Positions 14,718 through 24,292 are shown, counted from the stretch's first letter. The stretch is 25,637 nt of DNA from Coriobacteriales bacterium (GCA_051876145.1 JBJEHP010000263.1:1-25637); one strand, 5' to 3'. The notes: generated by a model from the letters alone, not told the origin. Program-made: numbers and translations.

Positions 14718-16554
14718 ACTGGATCCTCCCTCCTTCGAGATTGCCGCAGCCGTAATGGTCGCAGCGCAGGCAGCGGCCGCACTCCTGCTCGATCTCCTCG
14801 AGGCTCATCTCGTTTTCGGTGCACAGAAAATCGTGCTTGCGCTCGCGCGCCGGGCGCTCCGTGATGTTGGCGCGGCCAGTGGGGACGCGGTTGTTGAGCT
14901 TGGCTGCGGGTGCGGTCGCGCCGCAGTCGAGCTTGTGGTGGTAGCCGAGGTACTCGTCGATGTTGCGCGCGGCCACCTTGCCGGCGCCGATGGCGCGGAT
15001 GACGGTTGCGGGGCCGGTCTGGCACTCTCCGCCGACGAACAGCCCCTTGCCCTCGTAGCCGGCACCCTCGAGGAAGTCGTTGGAGACGAGGCGGTCGCGG
15101 TCGGTCTCGAGGCCGAACTTGGCGAACTCGGCGCTTTCGATGCTCTGGCCGATCGCCATGAGGATGATGTCGACGTCGAGGCGCACTTGGGGTTTGGAGG
15201 CATCGACGGGGGTGGGGCGGCCGCCGCGGATGGGGCCCGCCATCTGCGGCTGGACCAGCAGCGCGCAGCAGTTGCCGTCCTCGTCGACCTCGATGCCGGC
15301 GGGCGACTGGAGCGTGAGCAGTTCGACGCCCTCGGCGACGGCGGCCTCGATTTCGCTCGGCAGTGCCGTCATGTCGTCACGACGCCTGCGGTAGACGATG
15401 CTCACCTCTTCGGCGCCGGCTCGCACGGCGGTGCGCGCGCAGTCCATGGCGACGTTGCCGCCGCCGACCACGGCGACCTTCTTGCCGGAAAAGTCGGGCG
15501 TCTCGCCGTCGCCGATGCCGCGGAGCAGCTGCACGGCGGACATGACGTTGCCCGCCTGCGCGTTGTCCATCTTCAAGATCTTGCCGCCGTGGGCGCCGAT
15601 GGAGAGGTAGACCGCGTCGTAGCTGTCGACGATCTGCTGCATCATCTCGGCGTCGACCTGCGTCTCGAGCTTGACGTCGATGCCGCCGACGGAGAGCACC
15701 GCGCGGATGTCCTCGTCGAGGCGCTCGCGCGGGAAGCGGTAGGCGGGGATGCCGTAGCGCATCATGCCGCCGAGCTGCTTGCGCGACTCGAACACCGTGA
15801 CGTCGTGGCCCATGAGCGCAGAGAAGTACGCGCAGGTCAGACCCGAGGGGCCGCCGCCGATGACGGCGATCTTGCGGTTGGTGCGCGGCGCGCGCTCGGG
15901 CACGTCCACCTTGTCGGCCGCGATCTGGTCGACGGCGAAGCGCTTGATGCCGCGGATGTTGACGGGCGCGTCGACGATTTGACGGCGGCAGCGGATTTCG
16001 CAGGGGTTCTCGCAGATGAACGCGCAGGAGGTGGGGAAGGGGTTGTCCTTGCGGATCATCTTGATGGCGCCGGCGTAGTCGCCTTCGCCCACGAGCGCGA
16101 TATAGGCGGGGATGTTGACGTGCGCGGGGCACATGGCCTCGCACGGGAGGTTCATCTCGATTTCCGGCTTGCAGGAGTGCTCGACGAGGTGGCTCTCGTA
16201 TTCGTCGGCAAAGACGTCGAGGCTCTCGAGCACGGCCGTGGCCGCTTCCCAGCCGATGGCGCAATCGGAGGTGTCGCGGATCATGGTCGCGAGATTTTTC
16301 ACGTCGTCGAGCAGAGAGGCGTCTGCCTCGCAGTCGCGGATCTTGCAGAGCATCCTGTTGAGCTGCGGCAGGCCGTCGCGGCAGGGGATGCACTTGCCGC
16401 AGGTCTGCGCTGCGCTCGCCTCGGTCAAGGTGACCTGGAACGCAATCGGGCACATGCCGGTTGGCGTCGCGCTGATGCGGCGGTCGAATTTCTCCATGAA
16501 CGTGGCGATGCGTGCATCCACGCCAGCGTTTGGAGTGATTCTCACTTTGCTCAC
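14710..16554 (-). CDS. FAD/NAD(P)-dependent FDH partner: NuoF-like C-terminal [4Fe-4S] domain fused to a GltD/NfnA-like oxidoreductase
   Basis: QTCGKCIPCRDG...CAIG (NuoF N3-type cluster). PCEAMCP...NPFPTSCAFICENPCE, GGGPSG and GGGNVAMDCAR...VYRR. GTG start; overlaps the fdhF start by 8 nt. Confidence 0.88.
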   Translation of the reverse strand: MSKVRITPNAGVDARIATFMEKFDRRISATPTGMCPIAFQVTLTEASAAQTCGKCIPCRDGLPQLNRMLCKIRDCEADASLLDDVKNLATMIRDTSDCAIGWEAATAVLESLDVFADEYESHLVEHSCKPEIEMNLPCEAMCPAHVNIPAYIALVGEGDYAGAIKMIRKDNPFPTSCAFICENPCEIRCRRQIVDAPVNIRGIKRFAVDQIAADKVDVPERAPRTNRKIAVIGGGPSGLTCAYFSALMGHDVTVFESRKQLGGMMRYGIPAYRFPRERLDEDIRAVLSVGGIDVKLETQVDAEMMQQIVDSYDAVYLSIGAHGGKILKMDNAQAGNVMSAVQLLRGIGDGETPDFSGKKVAVVGGGNVAMDCARTAVRAGAEEVSIVYRRRRDDMTALPSEIEAAVAEGVELLTLQSPAGIEVDEDGNCCALLVQPQMAGPIRGGRPTPVDASKPQVRLDVDIILMAIGQSIESAEFAKFGLETDRDRLVSNDFLEGAGYEGKGLFVGGECQTGPATVIRAIGAGKVAARNIDEYLGYHHKLDCGATAPAAKLNNRVPTGRANITERPARERKHDFLCTENEMSLEEIEQECGRCLRCDHYGCGNLEGGRIQYA

Positions 16555-16689
16555 GGTTACCTTCTCATTTCTTGTCTGCGGTTACAAAGACCGCACCATT
16601 ATGACGCTCTTGAACCGCGCGCATTGTTTCGAATCTGTTTCGCCCCGCAGGAGGAAATGGCACGAGGGGCCGTGGGTATCGAACCATCT

Positions 16690-16727
16690 TGGCACGAGGG
16701 GACACCCCGCCCTGTCCCTTCGTGCCA
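16690..16727 (-). terminator. Hairpin immediately downstream of the licCA stop
   Basis: TGGCACGAGGGGAC (16690-16703) pairs with GTCCCTTCGTGCCA (16714-16727) with one mismatch or wobble. No clear U tract. Confidence 0.45.
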
Positions 16728-16738
16728 TCGCCATGCTG

Positions 16739-18502
16739 CTACTCGCGGTAGAGGCTGATCGCCAGGGGGAGGTACTTGATGGCGTACTTGTAGTAGGTAT
16801 ACAGCCAGTCGCCGACATAGTCGCCCTCGGACTCCTTCTGCAGCGCCCAAACGTACCAGCACCAGCCCGCCAGCCCCACGTACGCGAGGTTGTGGCGCCG
16901 CTCCTCGAGCGTCGGCGTGCGCCCGAAGTAGCTCTCAAGCGCGCGCTGCGCCTCGTCCTCGCCGAGCATGCACGTGACGACGAAGGTGCCGTAGTCGCTC
17001 GCGTAGTCGGACATGCCCGCGTACTCCCAGTCGATGAGCGACAGGCTGCCCGCCTTGTCGTAGAGCAGGTTCAGGTTGAAGAAGTCGTTGTGCGTCAGGC
17101 AGACGCGCGCGCCGTCCAGGTCCGCGAGCCGCTTGGCCTCGATGGCCTGCGCCTTGAGTTCCTCGTAGCCCGTGATGTCGATGGGCCCTTTCTCGAGCAG
17201 CAGTTTCTCGTACTTCAGGCCCTCCTCCAAGTAGTCGAAGTGCCGGTCGAGCCGCGCGGTCTGCGCGTGCAGTTTGCGTGCGATGCCCATCGCATCGGCC
17301 ACCTGCGCCTCGTCGTGCGGGTCGAGCTCGCGGCAGTCGGTGATGAAGCGCGAGATCTTCCAGCCCTGCGCGGGGTCCTCGTAGATGTAGGTGCCGTCGA
17401 TGCCGATCGACTTGGCGAGCTCGAGCGCCTGGACCTCGGCGGTGCGGTCGATCATCTGGTCGGTGCCCACGCCGGGGTGGCGGTACACGTACGAGCCGCT
17501 GTTGGTGGAGAAGTGGCAGGAAAGGTTCGTAAGTCCCTTCTTGAGCGGGTACACGTCGTGAATCTCGGACTTGGTGCAGCCGAGCACACGGCAGATGTTG
17601 TCGAATATCTTCGAGTCGACGTTCTCGAGGAACAGGGGGTCGAACTCCTTCAGCTCGTCGAGCGAGTCAAACTCGAAGATCGTGCCCGCGTCGTAGCGCC
17701 TGACCTCCATGTCGAGCTCGTCCACGTGGTCGATGAACAGCTCTTCCCACAGCTTGTCCGTTGTACGCGGGTCGTCATATTCCGCCACGAGGATCTCGGC
17801 GAAGCGCTCGGAGAACGCGCGGTCGAAATACGCGTGCCCGATCATGTACCACGCGTTGCTTCCGCCGATGTGCACGCCGGTGATGCGCTGTTTGGAATCG
17901 AACTCCAGGCACCACTCCTTGGTGGGGCCTTCCGAGAACTCGGCGGCGTAGTACGCCTTCCACACGTACGGCTCGAAGGGGTTTTGGGTGAAGTAGTCGT
18001 CCGACGAGCAGATGTAGGTGTTGCCGAGCATCTCGCGCACGCGCATGAGCGTCGAGTTGTTGTTGCGCGACGCGAACTCCTGGTTGACGACGATCTTCAC
18101 GCCGAGCTTTTGCTCCAGGTAGAAGAAGAGCTCCTTCTTGTAGCCCACGACGACGGCGATATCGGTGATACCCGCCTCGTGGAGCTGGCGGATCTGCCGT
18201 TCGATGAGGACCTCGCCACGCACGTTGAGCAGGCCCTTGGGCTTCTCGTACGAGATGGGGGCAAAGCGTGTCGACATGCCGGCGGCCATGATGACCGCGT
18301 TGTCGACCCGGTAGGGAGCGAGCTCTGCCAGCCCGCGTTCGTTGAGGACGCCATCTTCCACGAGCTTGGCGCTGGCGAGTTGGCGGACGGTCTTGTTTGC
18401 CGAGCCGAGCGAGACGCCCATGGCTTCGGCCAGCTCACGCTGGGTGAGGCCGGGGTTGTTCTTGAGGGCGAGCAGGGCGTCGAATTCTTTTTTGTCGAGC
18501 AT
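16739..18502 (-). CDS. licCA: HTH-CTP:phosphocholine cytidylyltransferase (LicC-like)-choline/ethanolamine kinase (LicA-like) fusion
   Basis: N-terminal HTH (LTQRELAEAMGVSLGSANKTVRQL). LicC motif NAVIMAAGMSTRFAPISYEKPKGLL. Kinase motifs KGLTN, THNDFFNLN and LIDWEYAG. RBS AAGGA favours the ATG at 18502; 587 aa. Confidence 0.88.
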   Translation of the reverse strand: MLDKKEFDALLALKNNPGLTQRELAEAMGVSLGSANKTVRQLASAKLVEDGVLNERGLAELAPYRVDNAVIMAAGMSTRFAPISYEKPKGLLNVRGEVLIERQIRQLHEAGITDIAVVVGYKKELFFYLEQKLGVKIVVNQEFASRNNNSTLMRVREMLGNTYICSSDDYFTQNPFEPYVWKAYYAAEFSEGPTKEWCLEFDSKQRITGVHIGGSNAWYMIGHAYFDRAFSERFAEILVAEYDDPRTTDKLWEELFIDHVDELDMEVRRYDAGTIFEFDSLDELKEFDPLFLENVDSKIFDNICRVLGCTKSEIHDVYPLKKGLTNLSCHFSTNSGSYVYRHPGVGTDQMIDRTAEVQALELAKSIGIDGTYIYEDPAQGWKISRFITDCRELDPHDEAQVADAMGIARKLHAQTARLDRHFDYLEEGLKYEKLLLEKGPIDITGYEELKAQAIEAKRLADLDGARVCLTHNDFFNLNLLYDKAGSLSLIDWEYAGMSDYASDYGTFVVTCMLGEDEAQRALESYFGRTPTLEERRHNLAYVGLAGWCWYVWALQKESEGDYVGDWLYTYYKYAIKYLPLAISLYRE

Positions 18503-18534
18503 GCGGTTCCTTGTCATGTTTAATGCTGATACAA

Positions 18535-18571
18535 TGTTCAAAAATCGTGAACAGAGTATAACATATGAACA
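18535..18571. promoter_or_regulatory. Candidate operator TGTTCA-N7-TGAACA plus an extra TGAACA half-site
   Basis: Perfect 6-bp arms at 18535-18540 and 18548-18553, a third half-site at 18566-18571, and a TATAAC -10-like box at 18557. Lies in the divergent licCA/permease gap. Confidence 0.5.
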
Positions 18572-18615
18572 CGATACCGAGAGAGCACGATACGGAACAT
18601 CGGAGGGCGAGGAGT

Positions 18616-19746
18616 ATGGGGACTGGACCTGCAGATATCGAGCGCCTGCGCGCACAGCGGCGCAAGCGGTACTTTGTGCGCGGAGTCGCCTTTGCCATCG
18701 CGTCGGGCATCTGCTATGGGCTCTACACCGGCTTTCTCACGCTGGGCGAGACGCAGGGCGTATGGGGTCCCTGGTTTGCGGGCGAATCTTGGGGCGCGGG
18801 CAATCCGCCGCTGAGCGCGTTCGCGATCACCTTCGTGCTCGCAGCGCTCGCCGCCGGCCTCAACGACTGTTTCAGCGGCGTCTGGTCGATTGCGCTATGC
18901 GCGAAAAACGGCCAGCTCGGCGACCTGGTCAAGACCGTCAAGACGAGGCCGGGCCGCATCATGATTGTGTGCGCGATCGTGGGCGGGCCGCTTGCGACCA
19001 CCGCCTACGTCATCGGCCTCAACTCCGCGACCGCCGCGGGAAACCCCGGCGTTATCGTCCCAATTGCGGCGCTCAACTGCGCCATCGGCGCGGTGCTGGG
19101 GCGCGTCTTCTTCAAGCAGGAGTTGGGCGCCCACAAGGTGCTCGGCATCCTTATCTGCCTGTGCGCGGGCGCGGTCATCGGGGGGACGAGCTTCGGCGCG
19201 ATGGGCGGTGAGGCGGCGCTCGGGTGCCTGTTCGCGTTCGTGGCGGCGTTTGGCTGGGGCTTCGAGGGATGCGTCGCAGGCTTTGGCACGATCCTCATCG
19301 ACTACCGCATCGGCATCGCGATCCGCGAGACGACCGCGGGTGTGCTCGAGCTGCTCGTACTGTTCCCGCTGCTCGCGGCGATCGGCGGCGACATCGCGGC
19401 GGTGCCCGGTATTGCCGCGGCGGCGTTTTCCAGCCCGGCGCTCCTCATCTTCGTGGTGTCGGGCTTCTTCACGATGCCGGCGTATTCGTTCTGGTACAAG
19501 GGCAACTCGATGTGCGGCGCGGCGCTCGGCATGGCATGCAACGGCATGTACGCGTTCTGGGGCCCGTTCTTTATCTGGATCATCATGGGCGTGCTGAACC
19601 TGGGCGGCCTGGCGGCGAGCTATCCGCCGCTCGAGCCCGTGCAATGGGCAGGCGCGCTCGTCATGGTGGTGGGCATCTTCTGCATCGCCATCAACCCCGC
19701 CAAGCTTTTCGCGAAGGACAGAAAGGCGGTTGCAGATGCGCAATAA
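18616..19746 (+). CDS. DMT/EamA-superfamily permease, functionally LicB-like (choline/amino-alcohol uptake inferred from context)
   Basis: About 10 TM helices in two repeats (AIASGICYG...GAVLGRVFFKQEL...ILICLCAG; AAFGWG...WAGALVMVVGI). GGAGG RBS before the ATG at 18616. Confidence 0.75.
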   Translation: MGTGPADIERLRAQRRKRYFVRGVAFAIASGICYGLYTGFLTLGETQGVWGPWFAGESWGAGNPPLSAFAITFVLAALAAGLNDCFSGVWSIALCAKNGQLGDLVKTVKTRPGRIMIVCAIVGGPLATTAYVIGLNSATAAGNPGVIVPIAALNCAIGAVLGRVFFKQELGAHKVLGILICLCAGAVIGGTSFGAMGGEAALGCLFAFVAAFGWGFEGCVAGFGTILIDYRIGIAIRETTAGVLELLVLFPLLAAIGGDIAAVPGIAAAAFSSPALLIFVVSGFFTMPAYSFWYKGNSMCGAALGMACNGMYAFWGPFFIWIIMGVLNLGGLAASYPPLEPVQWAGALVMVVGIFCIAINPAKLFAKDRKAVADAQ

Positions 19747-20029
19747 GCTGATGCCGCTCTACTACGCCATCGTCAAGCAGTTCATGGATGGCAACGAATA
19801 CGACGCCGCGGATATCGTGGCGCTGCTCGAGCCGAACTACGGCGGATACCGGTTGCTGACGCGCAAGGGCGTGGAGGAGGCGCTTGCGACGGCGAGGGAA
19901 AACGGGCTGCTCGACGAGTCGCGCTACGATGTCGACGATGCCGGTGAGCTGCGCGTCTTCTATCGCGTCAACGACTTTGGACGCGAGATGATCGATCGCT
20001 ACATCGGGATGTACCACAACCCGGCGTAG
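19736..20029 (+). CDS. Small hypothetical protein (97 aa), possibly winged-helix-like
   Basis: Overlaps the permease stop by 11 nt and has an RBS (GAAAGGCGG). The pattern (EEALATARENGLLDESRY...LRVFYRVNDFG) resembles a helix plus wing hairpin. Confidence 0.7.
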   Translation: MRNKLMPLYYAIVKQFMDGNEYDAADIVALLEPNYGGYRLLTRKGVEEALATARENGLLDESRYDVDDAGELRVFYRVNDFGREMIDRYIGMYHNPA

Positions 20030-20070
20030 GCTTCCCGCGTGCGTTGTGCCCGCGGTCCCTGCGCGAGAAA

Positions 20071-20109
20071 CGTGGCGCTGCCACGCATCCCCCCGCGCGG
20101 GGAGGGGTG
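20071..20109. terminator. Two GC-rich hairpins between convergent genes
   Basis: CGTGGC-GCT-GCCACG, then a CATCCCCCC...GGGGAGGGGTG stem. Confidence 0.35.
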
Positions 20110-20118
20110 TCGCTGGCG

Positions 20119-22218
20119 CTAGTCGTTGCTGCGCGGGGCGGGCTCGCCGTTGTAGAACTCGTAATCCCAGTGGACTCCGTCGGGCTTCCAGTCGTTGAAG
20201 TCCAGCGCATCGCCGTCGATCTCCATCTCGGTCATGCGGCTGTCGACCTTGCCGTCGTGGTGCGGGAACAGGAAGTGGCGGATGCGCCCCTTCTCGGGGG
20301 CGCGCCAGGCGGGGTTGCCGTACGTCGAGGCATCGCCCATCGCGGCATACATCACCGTCGGCGCAAAATCGAGATGCCCCGTCTGCACATCCGAGGTCTT
20401 GAGCGGCTCGGCGTCCTGCGCCGCACTCTGCGCCGGTTTCACGAACATGATCGGGTTCGTCGTCTGTTCGGGCAGCTCGGTGCCCCAGTGGTAATCGCCG
20501 TGGTCGGAGGTGACGATGACGGTCGTGCTGTCGTAGAGCCCCAGCTCCTTGAGCTGTCGCAGGTAGTCGGAGACGATGTTCATCGCGCCTTCGGCCTGGT
20601 CTTCGTACGTGCTGTGCACCGACTCGTGCATATCGCTGGTCATGGTGTAGGGGAAGTGCGCGCCGTTCAGGTGGATGAAGCGGAACGAGCCCCTCGACCC
20701 GCGGTCGACGACCTGCAGCTTGTCCCTCATCAGGCTGTCGTGGTAGCGCACGTCGTTGATGAGGTAGGGCATCTTGTTGATGTCGGGGTGGTCGCCCGTG
20801 ATGTCGGTGTTGATGTCGTCGGTGTAGTACCAGAACAGCGGCTTGAGCACCCACGGCGCATCGCGGTACAGGGCGATCTTGGCCATGATGGCGCTCGTGC
20901 CGATCCAGTCGGCGTCTGCGTCGCCGCCCTTCTCGAGCGGGTGCTGGTTGATGGTGAGCGGCTGGACAAAGTCGTAATCTCCGGGAATGCCCATCGTGTC
21001 GGTGTAGACGCCCAGGTCATAGCCCGCATTGTGCAGGTCCTGCAGAAACGTCGAGCGGTGGTAGCGCGTGTCGAGGAATTCGGCAAAGTCGTCGTCGGGC
21101 TTGGGCCAGCTGCCGGTGAGCAGGTAGGGCACGCCGTACTTGGTGGGAACGCCGGAGCCGGTCGCGTTGCGGTAGAACGTGAACCCGGTGAACTCGTCCA
21201 TCATGTGCGGGCGCTCCTTGACGACGTCCAGGTAGCGCGAGGTGTCGTACATGTCGAGCACGAACACGACGATGTTCTTGGAAGGCGACAGCGTGTTGAT
21301 GCCGTCGCCGGTCACGTAGACGCGCCCGTCCTCGCCGCCCTTGCCGGCAGAGGCGGGGTTTGCCGCGCTGATGCCCGCGCCGACGAGCGTGATGACGAGG
21401 AACACCGAGCACAGACCGGTCACGAGCGAGCGCATGCGCTTGGGATGCATCCGCGCGTAGATGATGGTGCCCGCGACGAGCGCCGCCCAGATGAGCGTGT
21501 TGCCGACAAACCACGGCCAGAACTCGAACCAGTCGATGGTGGCGCCGTTTGCCTGCGGCAGCCCCGTGTTCATGAACAGCGCCTGCAGCCAAAAGCCGAT
21601 GCCGATGGCGGCGACGATGGTGCGTGCGATGTCGAACGCGCGGCCGCGCACGAGCGAGATGAGCGCGGCGAGCACGAGCGAGACGATGAGGAAGGTCACG
21701 AGGATGGGGCGCCACACGACGGTGAGGCCGTAGGTGAGGCTGCCCGAGTTGGCCACCATGAGCTCGATCGGGGCGAGGAGCAGCAGGGTGCCGCAGGTGA
21801 ACAGGCACACGATGAGCGAGCGCCAGAACTTCTCGAGGTAGCTGAGCTCGCGCGCCTCGCCGGGCTTGGGCGCGTTGCGCCAGAACCTGCCCAGGCGCTC
21901 GTTTTCGGAGGCGAGGTCCTCGTCGCCCTCGACACGGCGCACGTCGGGGTCGATGACCTTGCCGGCGTTCTCGTCGATGCCGAAGACGCGCACGGCCTTC
22001 TTGCGCAGGCGGCGATACGCCACGCCAAAGACGGCGGACAGCGCCACGGCGACGCCCGCGAGCGCCTGAATCGTGTAGGTCATGACCGAGGGGTCGACGT
22101 AGGCGAGCGCGGGGGCGGGTGCGATAAGGGCCGCGGCCATCAGGCCGCAGGCGACAAGTCCGGCGTCCAACGCGAAGCCGGACGCGGCGCGCACGACGCG
22201 GGTGCTGTTACTGCGCAT
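20119..22218 (-). CDS. Membrane-anchored alkaline-phosphatase/sulfatase-superfamily phosphotransferase (LtaS/EptA-like)
   Basis: Signal-like N-terminus, about 5-6 TM helices, then a soluble domain with VFVLDMYD, PTKYGVPYLLTG (Thr nucleophile position), HLNGAHFPY and TSDHG. GGAGG RBS; overlaps the upstream stop by 11 nt; 699 aa. Confidence 0.8.
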   Translation of the reverse strand: MRSNSTRVVRAASGFALDAGLVACGLMAAALIAPAPALAYVDPSVMTYTIQALAGVAVALSAVFGVAYRRLRKKAVRVFGIDENAGKVIDPDVRRVEGDEDLASENERLGRFWRNAPKPGEARELSYLEKFWRSLIVCLFTCGTLLLLAPIELMVANSGSLTYGLTVVWRPILVTFLIVSLVLAALISLVRGRAFDIARTIVAAIGIGFWLQALFMNTGLPQANGATIDWFEFWPWFVGNTLIWAALVAGTIIYARMHPKRMRSLVTGLCSVFLVITLVGAGISAANPASAGKGGEDGRVYVTGDGINTLSPSKNIVVFVLDMYDTSRYLDVVKERPHMMDEFTGFTFYRNATGSGVPTKYGVPYLLTGSWPKPDDDFAEFLDTRYHRSTFLQDLHNAGYDLGVYTDTMGIPGDYDFVQPLTINQHPLEKGGDADADWIGTSAIMAKIALYRDAPWVLKPLFWYYTDDINTDITGDHPDINKMPYLINDVRYHDSLMRDKLQVVDRGSRGSFRFIHLNGAHFPYTMTSDMHESVHSTYEDQAEGAMNIVSDYLRQLKELGLYDSTTVIVTSDHGDYHWGTELPEQTTNPIMFVKPAQSAAQDAEPLKTSDVQTGHLDFAPTVMYAAMGDASTYGNPAWRAPEKGRIRHFLFPHHDGKVDSRMTEMEIDGDALDFNDWKPDGVHWDYEFYNGEPAPRSND

Positions 22219-24214
22219 GTGCCGCGCCTCCTTCCGCGACGGCAGCGGCGGCCGATTTCGGCATGCCAAGGCCGCTTTTCTCCAGCTTCTTCTCGTACTT
22301 GCTCATGTTGTACTTCTCCCGGATGGGGACCTGGTGGCGCAGGATCGCGGAGAGCAGGTACTCGCCCGCGGCCTCGCCGCCGTGCCCGAGGTTTGCGATG
22401 TGGTCGGCGCGGACGGCGCGCAGGCGCTCGGTCCACTCGTCGGTGTTGGCGAGCATGTGCTCGATGGTGGCGCCCACCTGCGCGACGTCTTCCGGCGCAA
22501 ACGACACGCCGGTCTGGTCGCGCAGCGTGATGTCGGTCGGGGTCTCGCCCAGCTCGCGCCAGTCGGGGTTGTTCACCTTCATGGGGGTGTTGATGTAGAC
22601 GGCGGGTTTGAGCTTGCTAAAGCAGAAGTCGAACGAGATGGTCGACCAGTCGGTGATCATGATGTCGGCGATGTTCGCGGACGACGGCTTGGAGTAGTCG
22701 TCTTCGAAGACGAGCTCCTCGGAGCCCGCGAGCTGCCCGACGCGCGTCTTGAGCGCATCCCAACGCGGACGGTAGCGTTTGACGTACTCGGGGTGGGGGC
22801 GCACGACGATGCGCCATCCGCGGCCGACAAGCGCGCCGACCAGCTCGTCGATGCACGAGTCGAGGATGTTGTCCTCCTGCCACGACGGGCCGATGACCAC
22901 GACCGGGCGCTCGTTGGGCTGGCGGTCGGCCGCCTCCTCGCGTGCGATGGAGCGGTCGAGCATGTCGTAGCCGATGAGCGGGAGGTTCTTCTTGCGGGGA
23001 AGGCCGTAGACCTTCTCGCCCAGGCGGAGCTCTTCGGCCTGGTGGTGGCCGGTGCACAAGATGGTGTCGTAGTTGTCGTAGCCGTGCTTCCAGCCGGTCA
23101 GGTAGAAGCTCGTCATGTGGTGCGGCTCGTAGACGTACTCGATGTCCTTGCGCATGCGGCTGCGCTTGATGTAGTAGTTGTCCAGGTCGTCCTGCGTGGT
23201 CACGACCACGTCGGCGTCCATCTTCATCATGAGGGTGATGGCTTTTTTCTCGCGCACGAAGTAGGGCTGAATGCGCGGGTTGTCCTTGGCTATGTCGAAG
23301 ATGATGTCGTCGGGGTCGTTCGTGACGTAGTGGATGGCCACGTTGGAATGTGCCAGCAGGTACTCGATGCCGCCCTGGAAGAAGCGGTAGTAGTTGGAGC
23401 CCTCGGTGTAGTAGACGATGTGCTTGTTGACCACGTTGAAGAAGCGCTCGTAGTCGGCCTTCTCGCGCTTGGAGAGCGGGTCTTTCTGCCACCACTTCTT
23501 CTTCTCGACCAGCGATTCAAGCGCTTCGACCTCTTTGCGCGACTCCTCGAGGTCGTCGTAGTCAATGTACTTCGCGGGCTTGACGATGAGGTTGCACAGC
23601 ACCTGCACGAGGATGGCGGTGAGGTTCGAGCAGATCCAGTAGAAGGACATGCCGGCGGCGACGAACACGCCCAAGACCAGCGACAGCGCGATGGACAGGC
23701 CATTGGTGAAGTTCTTCTCGGCGTTGGTCTGCTCTTTTTGGAGCGGGTTGATGGCGTTTTGCGCAAAGCCGAGCGCCACGGCGGAGAGGCCGGCCAGCAC
23801 GGGCATGATCCACGACAGGCCGCCGTCGATGGTGGGGACCATGCCGAGGAATTCGGTGCCGGGCGCGCCGCCGTCGGTGACGCCGTGGATGACGTCGACC
23901 AGGCCGAACAGGATGAGCACCTGCACGGCGAGCGGCACGAGCGAGAGCATCGGGTGGTACTTCTTCTCCTTGAAGAGCTCGCTTTGCTTCTCGCCGATAG
24001 TCTCTTTATCGCCGTAGTACTGCACCTTGAGGCGGTTGATGGCGGGCATCACCGTGACCATGACGATGGAGTTCTTCTGACACCATAGCGAAAGCGGCAT
24101 CAAGATGATCTTGCAGATGACGGTAAACAGGAAGATGGAAACCCACCAATTGCCGGTAAGCTGGTAGCACGGCTGCATGATGAGGTTGAGCACGCTCGCG
24201 AGTGCCTCGAACAC
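22208..24214 (-). CDS. yidC: YidC/Oxa1-like insertase domain fused to a CDP-glycerol:glycerophosphate transferase (TagB/TagF-like) domain
   Basis: N-terminal YidC core (GNWWVSIFLFTVICKIILMPL...PLAVQ...FYWICSN). C-terminal TagF-like motifs GPSW, VRPHP and DIMITDWSTISFDF...KPAV. GTG at 24214 with RBS GGGGAGGG; 668 aa in one uninterrupted frame. Confidence 0.85.
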   Translation of the reverse strand: MFEALASVLNLIMQPCYQLTGNWWVSIFLFTVICKIILMPLSLWCQKNSIVMVTVMPAINRLKVQYYGDKETIGEKQSELFKEKKYHPMLSLVPLAVQVLILFGLVDVIHGVTDGGAPGTEFLGMVPTIDGGLSWIMPVLAGLSAVALGFAQNAINPLQKEQTNAEKNFTNGLSIALSLVLGVFVAAGMSFYWICSNLTAILVQVLCNLIVKPAKYIDYDDLEESRKEVEALESLVEKKKWWQKDPLSKREKADYERFFNVVNKHIVYYTEGSNYYRFFQGGIEYLLAHSNVAIHYVTNDPDDIIFDIAKDNPRIQPYFVREKKAITLMMKMDADVVVTTQDDLDNYYIKRSRMRKDIEYVYEPHHMTSFYLTGWKHGYDNYDTILCTGHHQAEELRLGEKVYGLPRKKNLPLIGYDMLDRSIAREEAADRQPNERPVVVIGPSWQEDNILDSCIDELVGALVGRGWRIVVRPHPEYVKRYRPRWDALKTRVGQLAGSEELVFEDDYSKPSSANIADIMITDWSTISFDFCFSKLKPAVYINTPMKVNNPDWRELGETPTDITLRDQTGVSFAPEDVAQVGATIEHMLANTDEWTERLRAVRADHIANLGHGGEAAGEYLLSAILRHQVPIREKYNMSKYEKKLEKSGLGMPKSAAAAVAEGGAAHAQ

Positions 24215-24292
24215 TATGGACCCTCCCCAGGGTGTATGAAAACTGCGGCGCACATCCCAGCGCGCGCAGAAAGCCAGACTAAAAGCCCGTGC

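Follow-up and report, generated by a model that had tools for sequence, protein, structure and literature searches.

A YidC-TagF fusion and its LtaS-like partner form a candidate head-group transfer module associated with LicCA genes in Coriobacteriia

A locus at positions 16,739 to 24,214 of a 25,637-nucleotide stretch from a Coriobacteriales bacterium (GCA_051876145.1, JBJEHP010000263.1:1-25637; this whole stretch is referred to here as the window) encodes a LicC-LicA fusion protein (LicCA), a candidate permease, and a pair of membrane proteins, one joining a YidC-like core to a TagF-like phosphotransferase domain and the other resembling the lipoteichoic acid synthase LtaS. With moderate confidence, we propose that this locus encodes an envelope decoration of the Lic/Pnt type with a small phospho-head group, in which a two-sided membrane machine performs the transfer, either instead of LicD or besides it. 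To our knowledge, LicD performs the transfer step in every characterised case. The comparison of genomes presented below suggests that the membrane protein pair, rather than LicD, would be the surface head-group transferase here. The original prediction had read the locus as a LicD-independent pathway for phosphocholine-type decoration, and every gene that it named was recovered in place by Pfam, PDB and fold searches.

Throughout, the module is defined as the YidC-TagF gene plus the LtaS-like (sulfatase-like) gene. A scan of one genome per GTDB species yielded 243 related module loci, nearly all of them in Coriobacteriia (Eggerthellaceae, Atopobiaceae, and Coriobacteriaceae), and in an exhaustive profile-free search the TagF-like domain was present in 1,727 representative proteins. 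In 59 of the 71 loci with room for them, the YidC-TagF fusion is adjoined by between one and three sulfatase-like genes. In the window, the ATG of the sulfatase-like gene at 22218 and the stop codon of the YidC-TagF gene at 22208-22210 create an 11-nt overlap, and the two genes are probably translationally coupled. The three domains also occur as single polypeptides in both orders, YidC-TagF-Sulfatase and Sulfatase-YidC-TagF, the latter in metagenomes; the cultured species Raoultibacter timonensis carries a 1361-aa YidC-TagF-Sulfatase protein that is annotated merely as a YidC insertase. Coupling, adjacency, and fusion all point to the YidC-TagF protein and the putative LtaS-like enzyme being one functional unit. 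A complex prediction for the pair scored 0.58 compared to 0.00 for the best control. Of solved complexes, 58 of 80 score this high, and of mismatched pairs 2 of 110, with the reservation that predictions at 0.60 or less are wrong more frequently than they are right, save where the pairing was probable beforehand. Confident contacts were predicted between the TagF-like domain and residues 101-137 of the LtaS-like protein, its cytoplasmic linker, and none at the YidC groove or at the partner’s conserved AYVDPSVMTYTIQALAGVAVAL helix.

The gene neighbourhood of the module connects it to head-group activation. Neighbourhood counts rest on 80 of the 243 loci, 59 of which were at least 12 kb in length (long loci). 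A LicC-LicA fusion was found in 14 of the 80 loci, lying within 10 kb in 13 of the 59 long loci, and a LicA-like kinase in 18. Clustering of the open reading frames (ORFs) from all 80 loci showed that the recurrent neighbours besides the sulfatase-like gene were LicCA together with generic ABC ATPase, GT2 glycosyltransferase, acyltransferase, and EamA families, and that all other neighbour families were lineage-specific housekeeping genes. LicCA and the module were found in at least six gene orders. These include co-directional licCA-(permease)-module arrangements (L050, L056, L068, L069), convergent ones (the window and L041), divergent ones with the sulfatase-like gene first (L008, L009), one in which other genes part the two (L011), and longer LicCA variants beside the module (L038, L048, L061, L062, L066). 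In the type strain Atopobium minutum DSM 20586, LicCA, a permease, YidC-TagF, and two sulfatase-like genes follow one another on one strand with gaps of 17, 111, -1, and 35 nt, and Olsenella uli MC1 contains an operon-like licCA-permease-module cluster without LicD.

Phosphonate activation genes also adjoin the module. In L033, a fusion of PepM with a cytidylyltransferase, a transaminase, and a Ppd-like thiamine pyrophosphate enzyme lie beside it, followed by HTH-LicC and HTH-LicCA proteins (HTH, helix-turn-helix), while in L083 an NTP-transferase/cytidylyltransferase/PepM fusion, an iron-containing alcohol dehydrogenase (Fe-ADH), and Ppd come directly after the YidC-TagF gene. In two genomes without LicCA (G241 and G273), the module is adjoined by an NTP_transferase-aminotransferase fusion that resembles the solved PntC fusion of Treponema, which is also among the PDB matches of the window LicCA. 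No pepM was found in the window. Co-occurrence of the module with licCA or phosphonate genes, the check called for by the original prediction, was thus found, with LicCA or a LicA-type kinase in several independent arrangements and PepM/PntC clusters in L033 and L083. Separately, L004 carries beside its module (16074-20233) an EamA permease and two choline-type kinases with the ethanolamine permease EutH between them, and no LicC adjoins these genes, an arrangement which suggests that some lineages can use both ethanolamine and choline as substrates.

Two genome sets were used, an unbiased set of 301 evenly drawn Coriobacteriia and a set of 50 genomes reached through module loci. In the unbiased set, the module was found in 23 genomes, LicCA in 58, and LicD in 75. 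In the module genomes, full-length LicCA was found in 44 of 50, compared to 58 of 301 across the class, counts that are uncorrected for phylogeny; three further module genomes have separate LicC- or LicA-like genes. LicD was found in 25 of the 50, and LicCA occurs without LicD in 19, including A. minutum, Berryella wangjianweii (a complete chromosome), and O. uli MC1. TagD did not exceed its curated cut-off in any of the 50 module genomes or in the window’s own genome (51 in total). On this basis CDP-glycerol was judged unlikely as the donor, a non-TagD source being possible.

Within the window’s genus, three metagenome-assembled genomes (MAGs; G000, which is the source of the window, G002, and G003) that are 76-88% complete each carry the module and LicCA, and none carries LicD. 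If LicD were core to the genus, the completeness values give a chance of about 0.5% for missing it three times. A fourth species (G001) has LicD, with neither the module nor LicCA seen, and was not used either way. The original prediction had left room for a licD elsewhere in the genome; no PF04991 match was found anywhere in the source MAG, which is 87.9% complete. In the same family, a genome of 47.5% GC (G025) is the only 100%-complete module genome with neither LicCA nor LicD. Its module locus (L110, G025:C9, 6665-10566) has a frameshift in the YidC part and one in-frame stop in the sulfatase-like gene, lesions that fit a co-loss of module and LicCA. Finally, LicCA genes adjacent to the module do not group apart from those adjacent to LicD in a maximum-likelihood tree of 39 sequences; the two kinds are interspersed, and well-supported branches force at least six switches between them, from which it follows that the same orthologue partners with either type of transferase.

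The YidC-TagF protein consists of a YidC/Oxa1-like five-helix core (residues ~14-230) and a cytoplasmic TagF-like phosphotransferase domain of GT-B fold (residues ~260-640). The Pfam family 60KD_IMP matched residues 36-221 with 95.3 bits against a cut-off of 35, and Glyphos_transf matched residues 448-552 marginally, with 23.3 bits against a cut-off of 22.1. An AlphaFold2 model with a predicted local distance difference test (pLDDT) score of 86.6 depicts helices forming a membrane core, after which comes a two-lobe domain of Rossmann type, and Foldseek returned TagF (3l7k, E 1.5e-10) as the top match to this model, with E. coli YidC (6al2) also matched. A single-sequence search of the TagF-like domain against the PDB returned nothing; a 63-sequence profile of the domain matched the capsule polymerase Cps3D (8qoy) and TarL (8va1), and its AP(S/T)W, RPHP, and TDWS motifs align with their counterparts in these enzymes. 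Residues H378, R485, H487, D535, and S537 are invariant, with conservation checked in alignments of 28 and 71 sequences. In the YidC-like core, K48 aligns at R366, the groove arginine of E. coli YidC, and this position is lysine or arginine in 28 of 28 diverse homologues and lysine in all 70 Coriobacteriia copies. Complete relatives have a separate, better-scoring housekeeping YidC of ~260 aa, which indicates that the fused copy is a specialised paralogue and probably not the housekeeping insertase, a role that was rejected for it on the same ground. The YidC-like half could equally serve only as an anchor or assembly scaffold.

The sulfatase-like protein matched Pfam Sulfatase (E 8e-11), and its best profile match was S. 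aureus LtaS (2w5q, E 5.3e-10). From the N-terminus, it contains a signal-like segment, the AYVDPSVMTYTIQALAGVAVAL helix, a cytoplasmic linker, a bundle of five transmembrane (TM) helices, and an extracytoplasmic domain of the alkaline phosphatase superfamily. The AlphaFold2 model (pLDDT 81.5) places helices at residues 144-303 ahead of an alpha/beta domain, and Foldseek matched this model to PbgA/YejM, MCR-1, and LtaS, the first two as full-length matches. Among 26 LtaS-like sequences, D339, D342, T376, H533, H538, D589, and H590 are invariant, and the GaHvPY and DH segments align with the HYPF and DH motifs of LtaS; with this invariant Thr/Asp/His set, the LtaS-like enzyme appears catalytically competent. 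The most conserved segment of the family, which is elsewhere ~37% identical, is the near-invariant AYVDPSVMTYTIQALAGVAVAL...RR.RK helix at residues 57-95 (window 21985-22100, minus strand), which ends in basic residues. Both of the earlier protein assignments were therefore confirmed, that of a YidC-like protein fused to a cytoplasmic TagB/TagF-like transferase through the Pfam, AlphaFold2/Foldseek, and profile motif results, and that of an LtaS/EptA-like enzyme with an external catalytic domain through its 5-TM fold and invariant threonine nucleophile.

The activation half of the locus appears to belong to the Lic family, with the permease and HTH-LicC-LicA protein predicted to act as a standard cassette that imports its substrate, phosphorylates it, and activates it with CTP. 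LicCA is 592 aa long from its likely start, with the reading frame extending without a stop as far as a GTG at 18655. Its Pfam domains are a MarR-type HTH, NTP_transferase, and Choline_kinase/APH, with a Choline_kinase score of 38.8 bits against a cut-off of 29. Residues 70-295 align with the full length of S. pneumoniae LicC (1JYK, E 3.9e-38) and residues 316-583 align with the S. pneumoniae choline kinase LicA (4R77, E 4.5e-24). The LicC part is a predicted CTP:phospho-aminoalcohol cytidylyltransferase, for which the choice between choline, ethanolamine, and aminoethylphosphonate (AEP) is not readable from sequence, and the LicA part is a predicted choline/ethanolamine-type kinase. An Asp/Glu size criterion for LicC specificity, taken from Rice et al., was dropped, as its residue numbering did not transfer reliably to the alignment. 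Orthologues across Coriobacteriia are 58-75% identical. The longer variants, HTH-LicC-LicA-NTP_transferase proteins of ~889 aa, include L062:5300-7969, L066:5393-8062, and L038:15307-17976, and their additional NTP_transferase domain follows the kinase; the variant gene is separated from the module by an amidohydrolase gene in both L062 and L066.

The permease is polytopic, with weak matches to Pfam EamA (E 0.42) and NCBIfam phn_DUF6 (E 2.9e-5, below its cut-off). Its ESM-Atlas neighbours are EamA/DMT clusters, and a search against solved structures returned no match. A copy that is 81% identical adjoins LicCA in L041, and EamA permeases that are 25-30% identical to that of the window come after LicCA in L050, L033, L068, and L069. 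We infer a LicB-like role for this predicted permease. The 99-aa ORF that overlaps the permease stop has a counterpart at the same position in L041 (E 1e-36); it matched no Pfam family and gave only faint PqqD and winged-HTH hints.

In the mechanism we propose, choline or a related amino-alcohol would enter through the DMT permease, and LicCA would phosphorylate it and then activate it with CTP. The TagF-like domain, held at the inner face of the membrane by the YidC-like core, would move the phospho-head group to a carrier hydroxyl with release of CMP, the donor here probably being CDP-choline or a related CDP-aminoalcohol and in relatives CMP-AEP. Candidate carriers are diacylglycerol, a glycolipid, and a polyprenyl-linked glycan, of which diacylglycerol is attractive because its free glycerol hydroxyl resembles the natural TagF acceptor. 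The charged carrier would then reach the outer face, possibly helped by the YidC-like groove, where the LtaS-like enzyme would load the head group on Thr376 and hand it to the final acceptor, be it a protein, a lipoglycan, or a wall glycan. The assignments of donor, carrier, and acceptor are thus putative, as is any transport function of the YidC half. A conserved basic and polar YidC-like groove would suit carrier movement. That the YidC-like domain is a conduit for lipid head groups and not an insertase, the three domains forming an inside-to-outside relay which replaces LicD and a flippase, is a bolder version of the proposal that we regard as tentative and rather doubtful.

Each part of this proposed system has a characterised counterpart. 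The Lic-1 systems of S. pneumoniae and H. influenzae (LicB, LicA, LicC, and LicD) share the kinase and cytidylyltransferase steps and probably that of uptake, if the predicted permease of the window is a DMT type like LicB, whereas the LicC and LicA of the window are joined in one protein with a DNA-binding HTH and the candidate transferases have folds unrelated to LicD. With TagF, TagB, and TarL (PF04464; 3l7k, 8va1, 8qoy), the window domain has in common the GT-B-like fold, the AP(S/T)W, R/K-x-H-P, and TD(Y/W)S motifs, and an invariant histidine of the N-subdomain, but it is fused to a YidC-like core and associated with activation genes of the LicC/PntC type. LtaS, GacH, EptA/MCR-1, PptA, OpgB, and PbgA/YejM share with the partner protein the 5-TM bundle, the outward domain, the threonine nucleophile, and the metal ligands (D339, T376, D589, H590). 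The window protein differs from them in its extra signal-like N-terminus and AYVDPSVMTYTIQALAGVAVAL helix and in its obligatory pairing or fusion with a cytoplasmic CDP-dependent transferase, where the known members use ordinary phospholipids. Similarly, the five-helix core, basic groove residue (K48), and conserved polar groove residues are common to YidC, SpoIIIJ, and Oxa1 (PF02096; 6al2, 3wo7), but the window core is a diverged paralogue fused to an enzyme and scores ~100 bits compared to 170-184 bits for housekeeping YidC. Insertases, YidC among them, are reported to scramble lipids (bioRxiv 10.1101/2023.09.01.555937), an activity that would likewise suit a role of the YidC-like part in carrier movement.

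Among published enzymes, the closest precedent for the TagF-like transfer step is FtaD (CD0244) of C. difficile, a TagF-like enzyme that uses CDP-N-methylthreonine and installs the flagellin Type A glycan modification (bioRxiv 10.64898/2026.02.12.704994), from which it follows that a TagF-like fold can transfer small phospho-amino head groups. FtaD differs in being soluble and free-standing and in acting on a cytoplasmic glycoprotein, with neither a YidC-like domain nor an LtaS-like partner. For the activation step, Rice et al. 2019 described CMP-AEP formation by the LicC-like PntC of Atopobium rimae and phosphonates in O. uli, and placed LicC-like CMP-AEP activation in Atopobium rimae, Olsenella uli, and Treponema (PMC6697681). 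As consumers, these authors assumed LicD-like enzymes or glycosyltransferases, and TagF-, sulfatase-, and YidC-like genes are unmentioned there (PMC6697681). PepM/PntC genes as in the Pnt clusters directly adjoin the module in L033 and L083; the window itself is without pepM. The literature searched contained no link between YidC and a TagF-like enzyme, no described function for the three-fold arrangement, and no report of phosphocholine in Atopobium, Olsenella, or Eggerthella.

Several observations weigh against our proposal. No LicCA lies within 10 kb of the module in 46 of the 59 long loci, and in one genus the module is far from the licCA-licD cluster in 12 of 12 species. In the unbiased set, 54 of the 58 genomes matching LicCA have LicD, usually a few kb from LicCA, as do 18 of the 20 genomes with both module and LicCA, and the window LicCA falls in the same orthologue group as LicD-adjacent copies. 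The conserved TagF-like motifs bind only the CDP part of the donor, whose identity they leave unreadable. The three transcription units of the window locus are not co-transcribed, the lesions in G025 could be assembly errors, the complex prediction is only a weak pass, and the lack of phylogenetic correction bears on all of the co-occurrence counts. In addition, the source assembly is incomplete. Its only YidC-family match is the fused copy, and the essential housekeeping yidC of complete relatives is missing from it, which indicates that the MAG has real gaps; because of this incompleteness, the absence of LicD from this single assembly is weak evidence.

As LicD is present in 18 of 20 module and LicCA genomes, the module is no general LicD substitute, and a simple rule in which the module replaces LicD was rejected, LicD coexisting with it in most module genomes of the unbiased set. 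In genomes with LicD, the module may be a second consumer with another acceptor, or something else. The LicD-independent pathway of the original prediction is therefore supported in part, by the 19 of 50 module genomes and the three congeners without LicD, and contradicted as a general statement by the unbiased set.

The best-surviving alternative is that two separate systems lie side by side, with the protein pair building or modifying a teichoic-acid-like polyol-phosphate polymer and LicCA feeding a canonical LicD. The donor for the pair would be CDP-glycerol from a non-TagD enzyme or phosphatidylglycerol at the outer face, and LicD would either be missing from the incomplete assembly or be decorating the same polymer. 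This agrees with the Pfam names and with the best solved relatives, TagF, TarL, Cps3D, and LtaS, which use CDP-glycerol, CDP-ribitol, or phosphatidylglycerol, as well as with LicD coexisting with the module, usually beside LicCA, in those 18 of 20 genomes, with a window locus that is no operon in an 88% complete MAG, and with distant homologues that end ABC-transporter glycan clusters and have MBOAT (DltB-like) genes nearby. We nevertheless judge it unlikely, since TagD over its cut-off is lacking from the window’s genome and the 50 module genomes alike, all three congeneric MAGs with module and LicCA are without LicD, 19 of the 50 module genomes have LicCA without LicD, the clusters of A. minutum and O. 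uli MC1 join licCA, permease, and module in an operon-like manner with no LicD, and phosphonate activation genes directly adjoin the module in L033 and L083.

LtaS/EptA-type enzymes normally draw their head groups from phospholipids. This fact, and a LicC-LicA fusion order that we take to be the same as in Treponema LicCA, would be accommodated if LicCA served membrane phosphatidylcholine through a CDP-alcohol phosphatidyltransferase paralogue, as in Treponema denticola, with the module being unrelated or using that lipid as its outer-face donor. Two PF01066 genes are indeed present in the window’s genome and in five LicD-less module genomes, but as two copies are found in every genome examined, this family does not discriminate. 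The PF01066 genes never adjoin licCA or the module in the loci examined, and the fusion or coupling of a TagF-like CDP-binding domain to an LtaS-like enzyme would go unexplained, making this alternative improbable.

Least probable of all is an adjacency without functional meaning, in which mobile licCA-permease cassettes and the module would both have landed in variable envelope-gene regions. In its favour, the module’s surroundings are otherwise housekeeping genes varying by lineage, and the window and L041 share 75-81% identity in LicCA and the permease compared to 53% in the TagF part and 38% in the sulfatase-like protein, a contrast that suggests separate histories of cassette and module. 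Against it, 13 of 59 long loci have LicCA no more than 10 kb from the module, far more than the 1-4% expected by chance (~2 Mb genomes with 1-4 copies); LicCA also occurs in several different gene orders, and apart from it and the sulfatase-like gene no non-housekeeping neighbour family recurs.

The features of the locus are listed in Table 1. The source assembly is a MAG of 1.95 Mb in 352 contigs; the window comes from contig C263 and has a GC content of ~64%. LuxR regulators, flavin and molybdopterin reductases, and cytochrome c3 around the locus are typical Coriobacteriia surroundings, and the closest public contig is L005, from a rumen MAG labelled Coriobacteriaceae, with 98% identity. As the permease gene lies on the opposite strand, where it diverges from licCA and converges on the sulfatase-like gene, the locus consists of three transcription units and not one operon. 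The gene content and coupled pair of the earlier description stand, the strand of the permease being the exception.

Table 1. Predicted genes of the locus, with window coordinates
Feature	Position	Strand	Basis	Start
HTH-LicC-LicA fusion	16739-18517	-	Pfam domains, PDB relatives	ATG 18517 likely
DMT/EamA-like permease	18565-19746	+	weak EamA/phn_DUF6, Atlas neighbours	exact start uncertain
small conserved soluble ORF, 99 aa	19730-20029	+	58% identity to L041 counterpart	
LtaS/EptA/PbgA-like sulfatase-superfamily membrane protein	20119-22269	-	Pfam Sulfatase, fold	ATG 22218 likely
YidC-like/TagF-like fusion	22208-24253	-	Pfam, AlphaFold2, Foldseek	GTG 24214 likely

Additional arrangements were observed around other modules. 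In L086 and L087, three-domain or YidC-TagF proteins of distant homologues lie at the 3' end of Wzm/Wzt-type ABC-transporter clusters with GT1, GT2, and GT4 glycosyltransferases, and a small ORF of ~90-100 aa comes after the three-domain/YidC-TagF gene. MBOAT (DltB-like) genes adjoin YidC-TagF in two unrelated lineages (L112:12315-14204 and L083:6370-7041), a neighbour that hints at a teichoic-acid-like acceptor polymer.

At the bacterial surface, phosphocholine and AEP are ligands for host receptors as well as for C-reactive protein and natural antibodies. If the proposed role of the module is true, licD-based prediction of phosphocholine in gut and oral Coriobacteriia would need revision, the fold of teichoic acid polymerisation would gain a new substrate class, following FtaD, and a long-known insertase fold could have been co-opted for an enzyme complex. 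The system is testable in cultured species, namely Atopobium minutum DSM 20586, Olsenella uli, and Raoultibacter timonensis.

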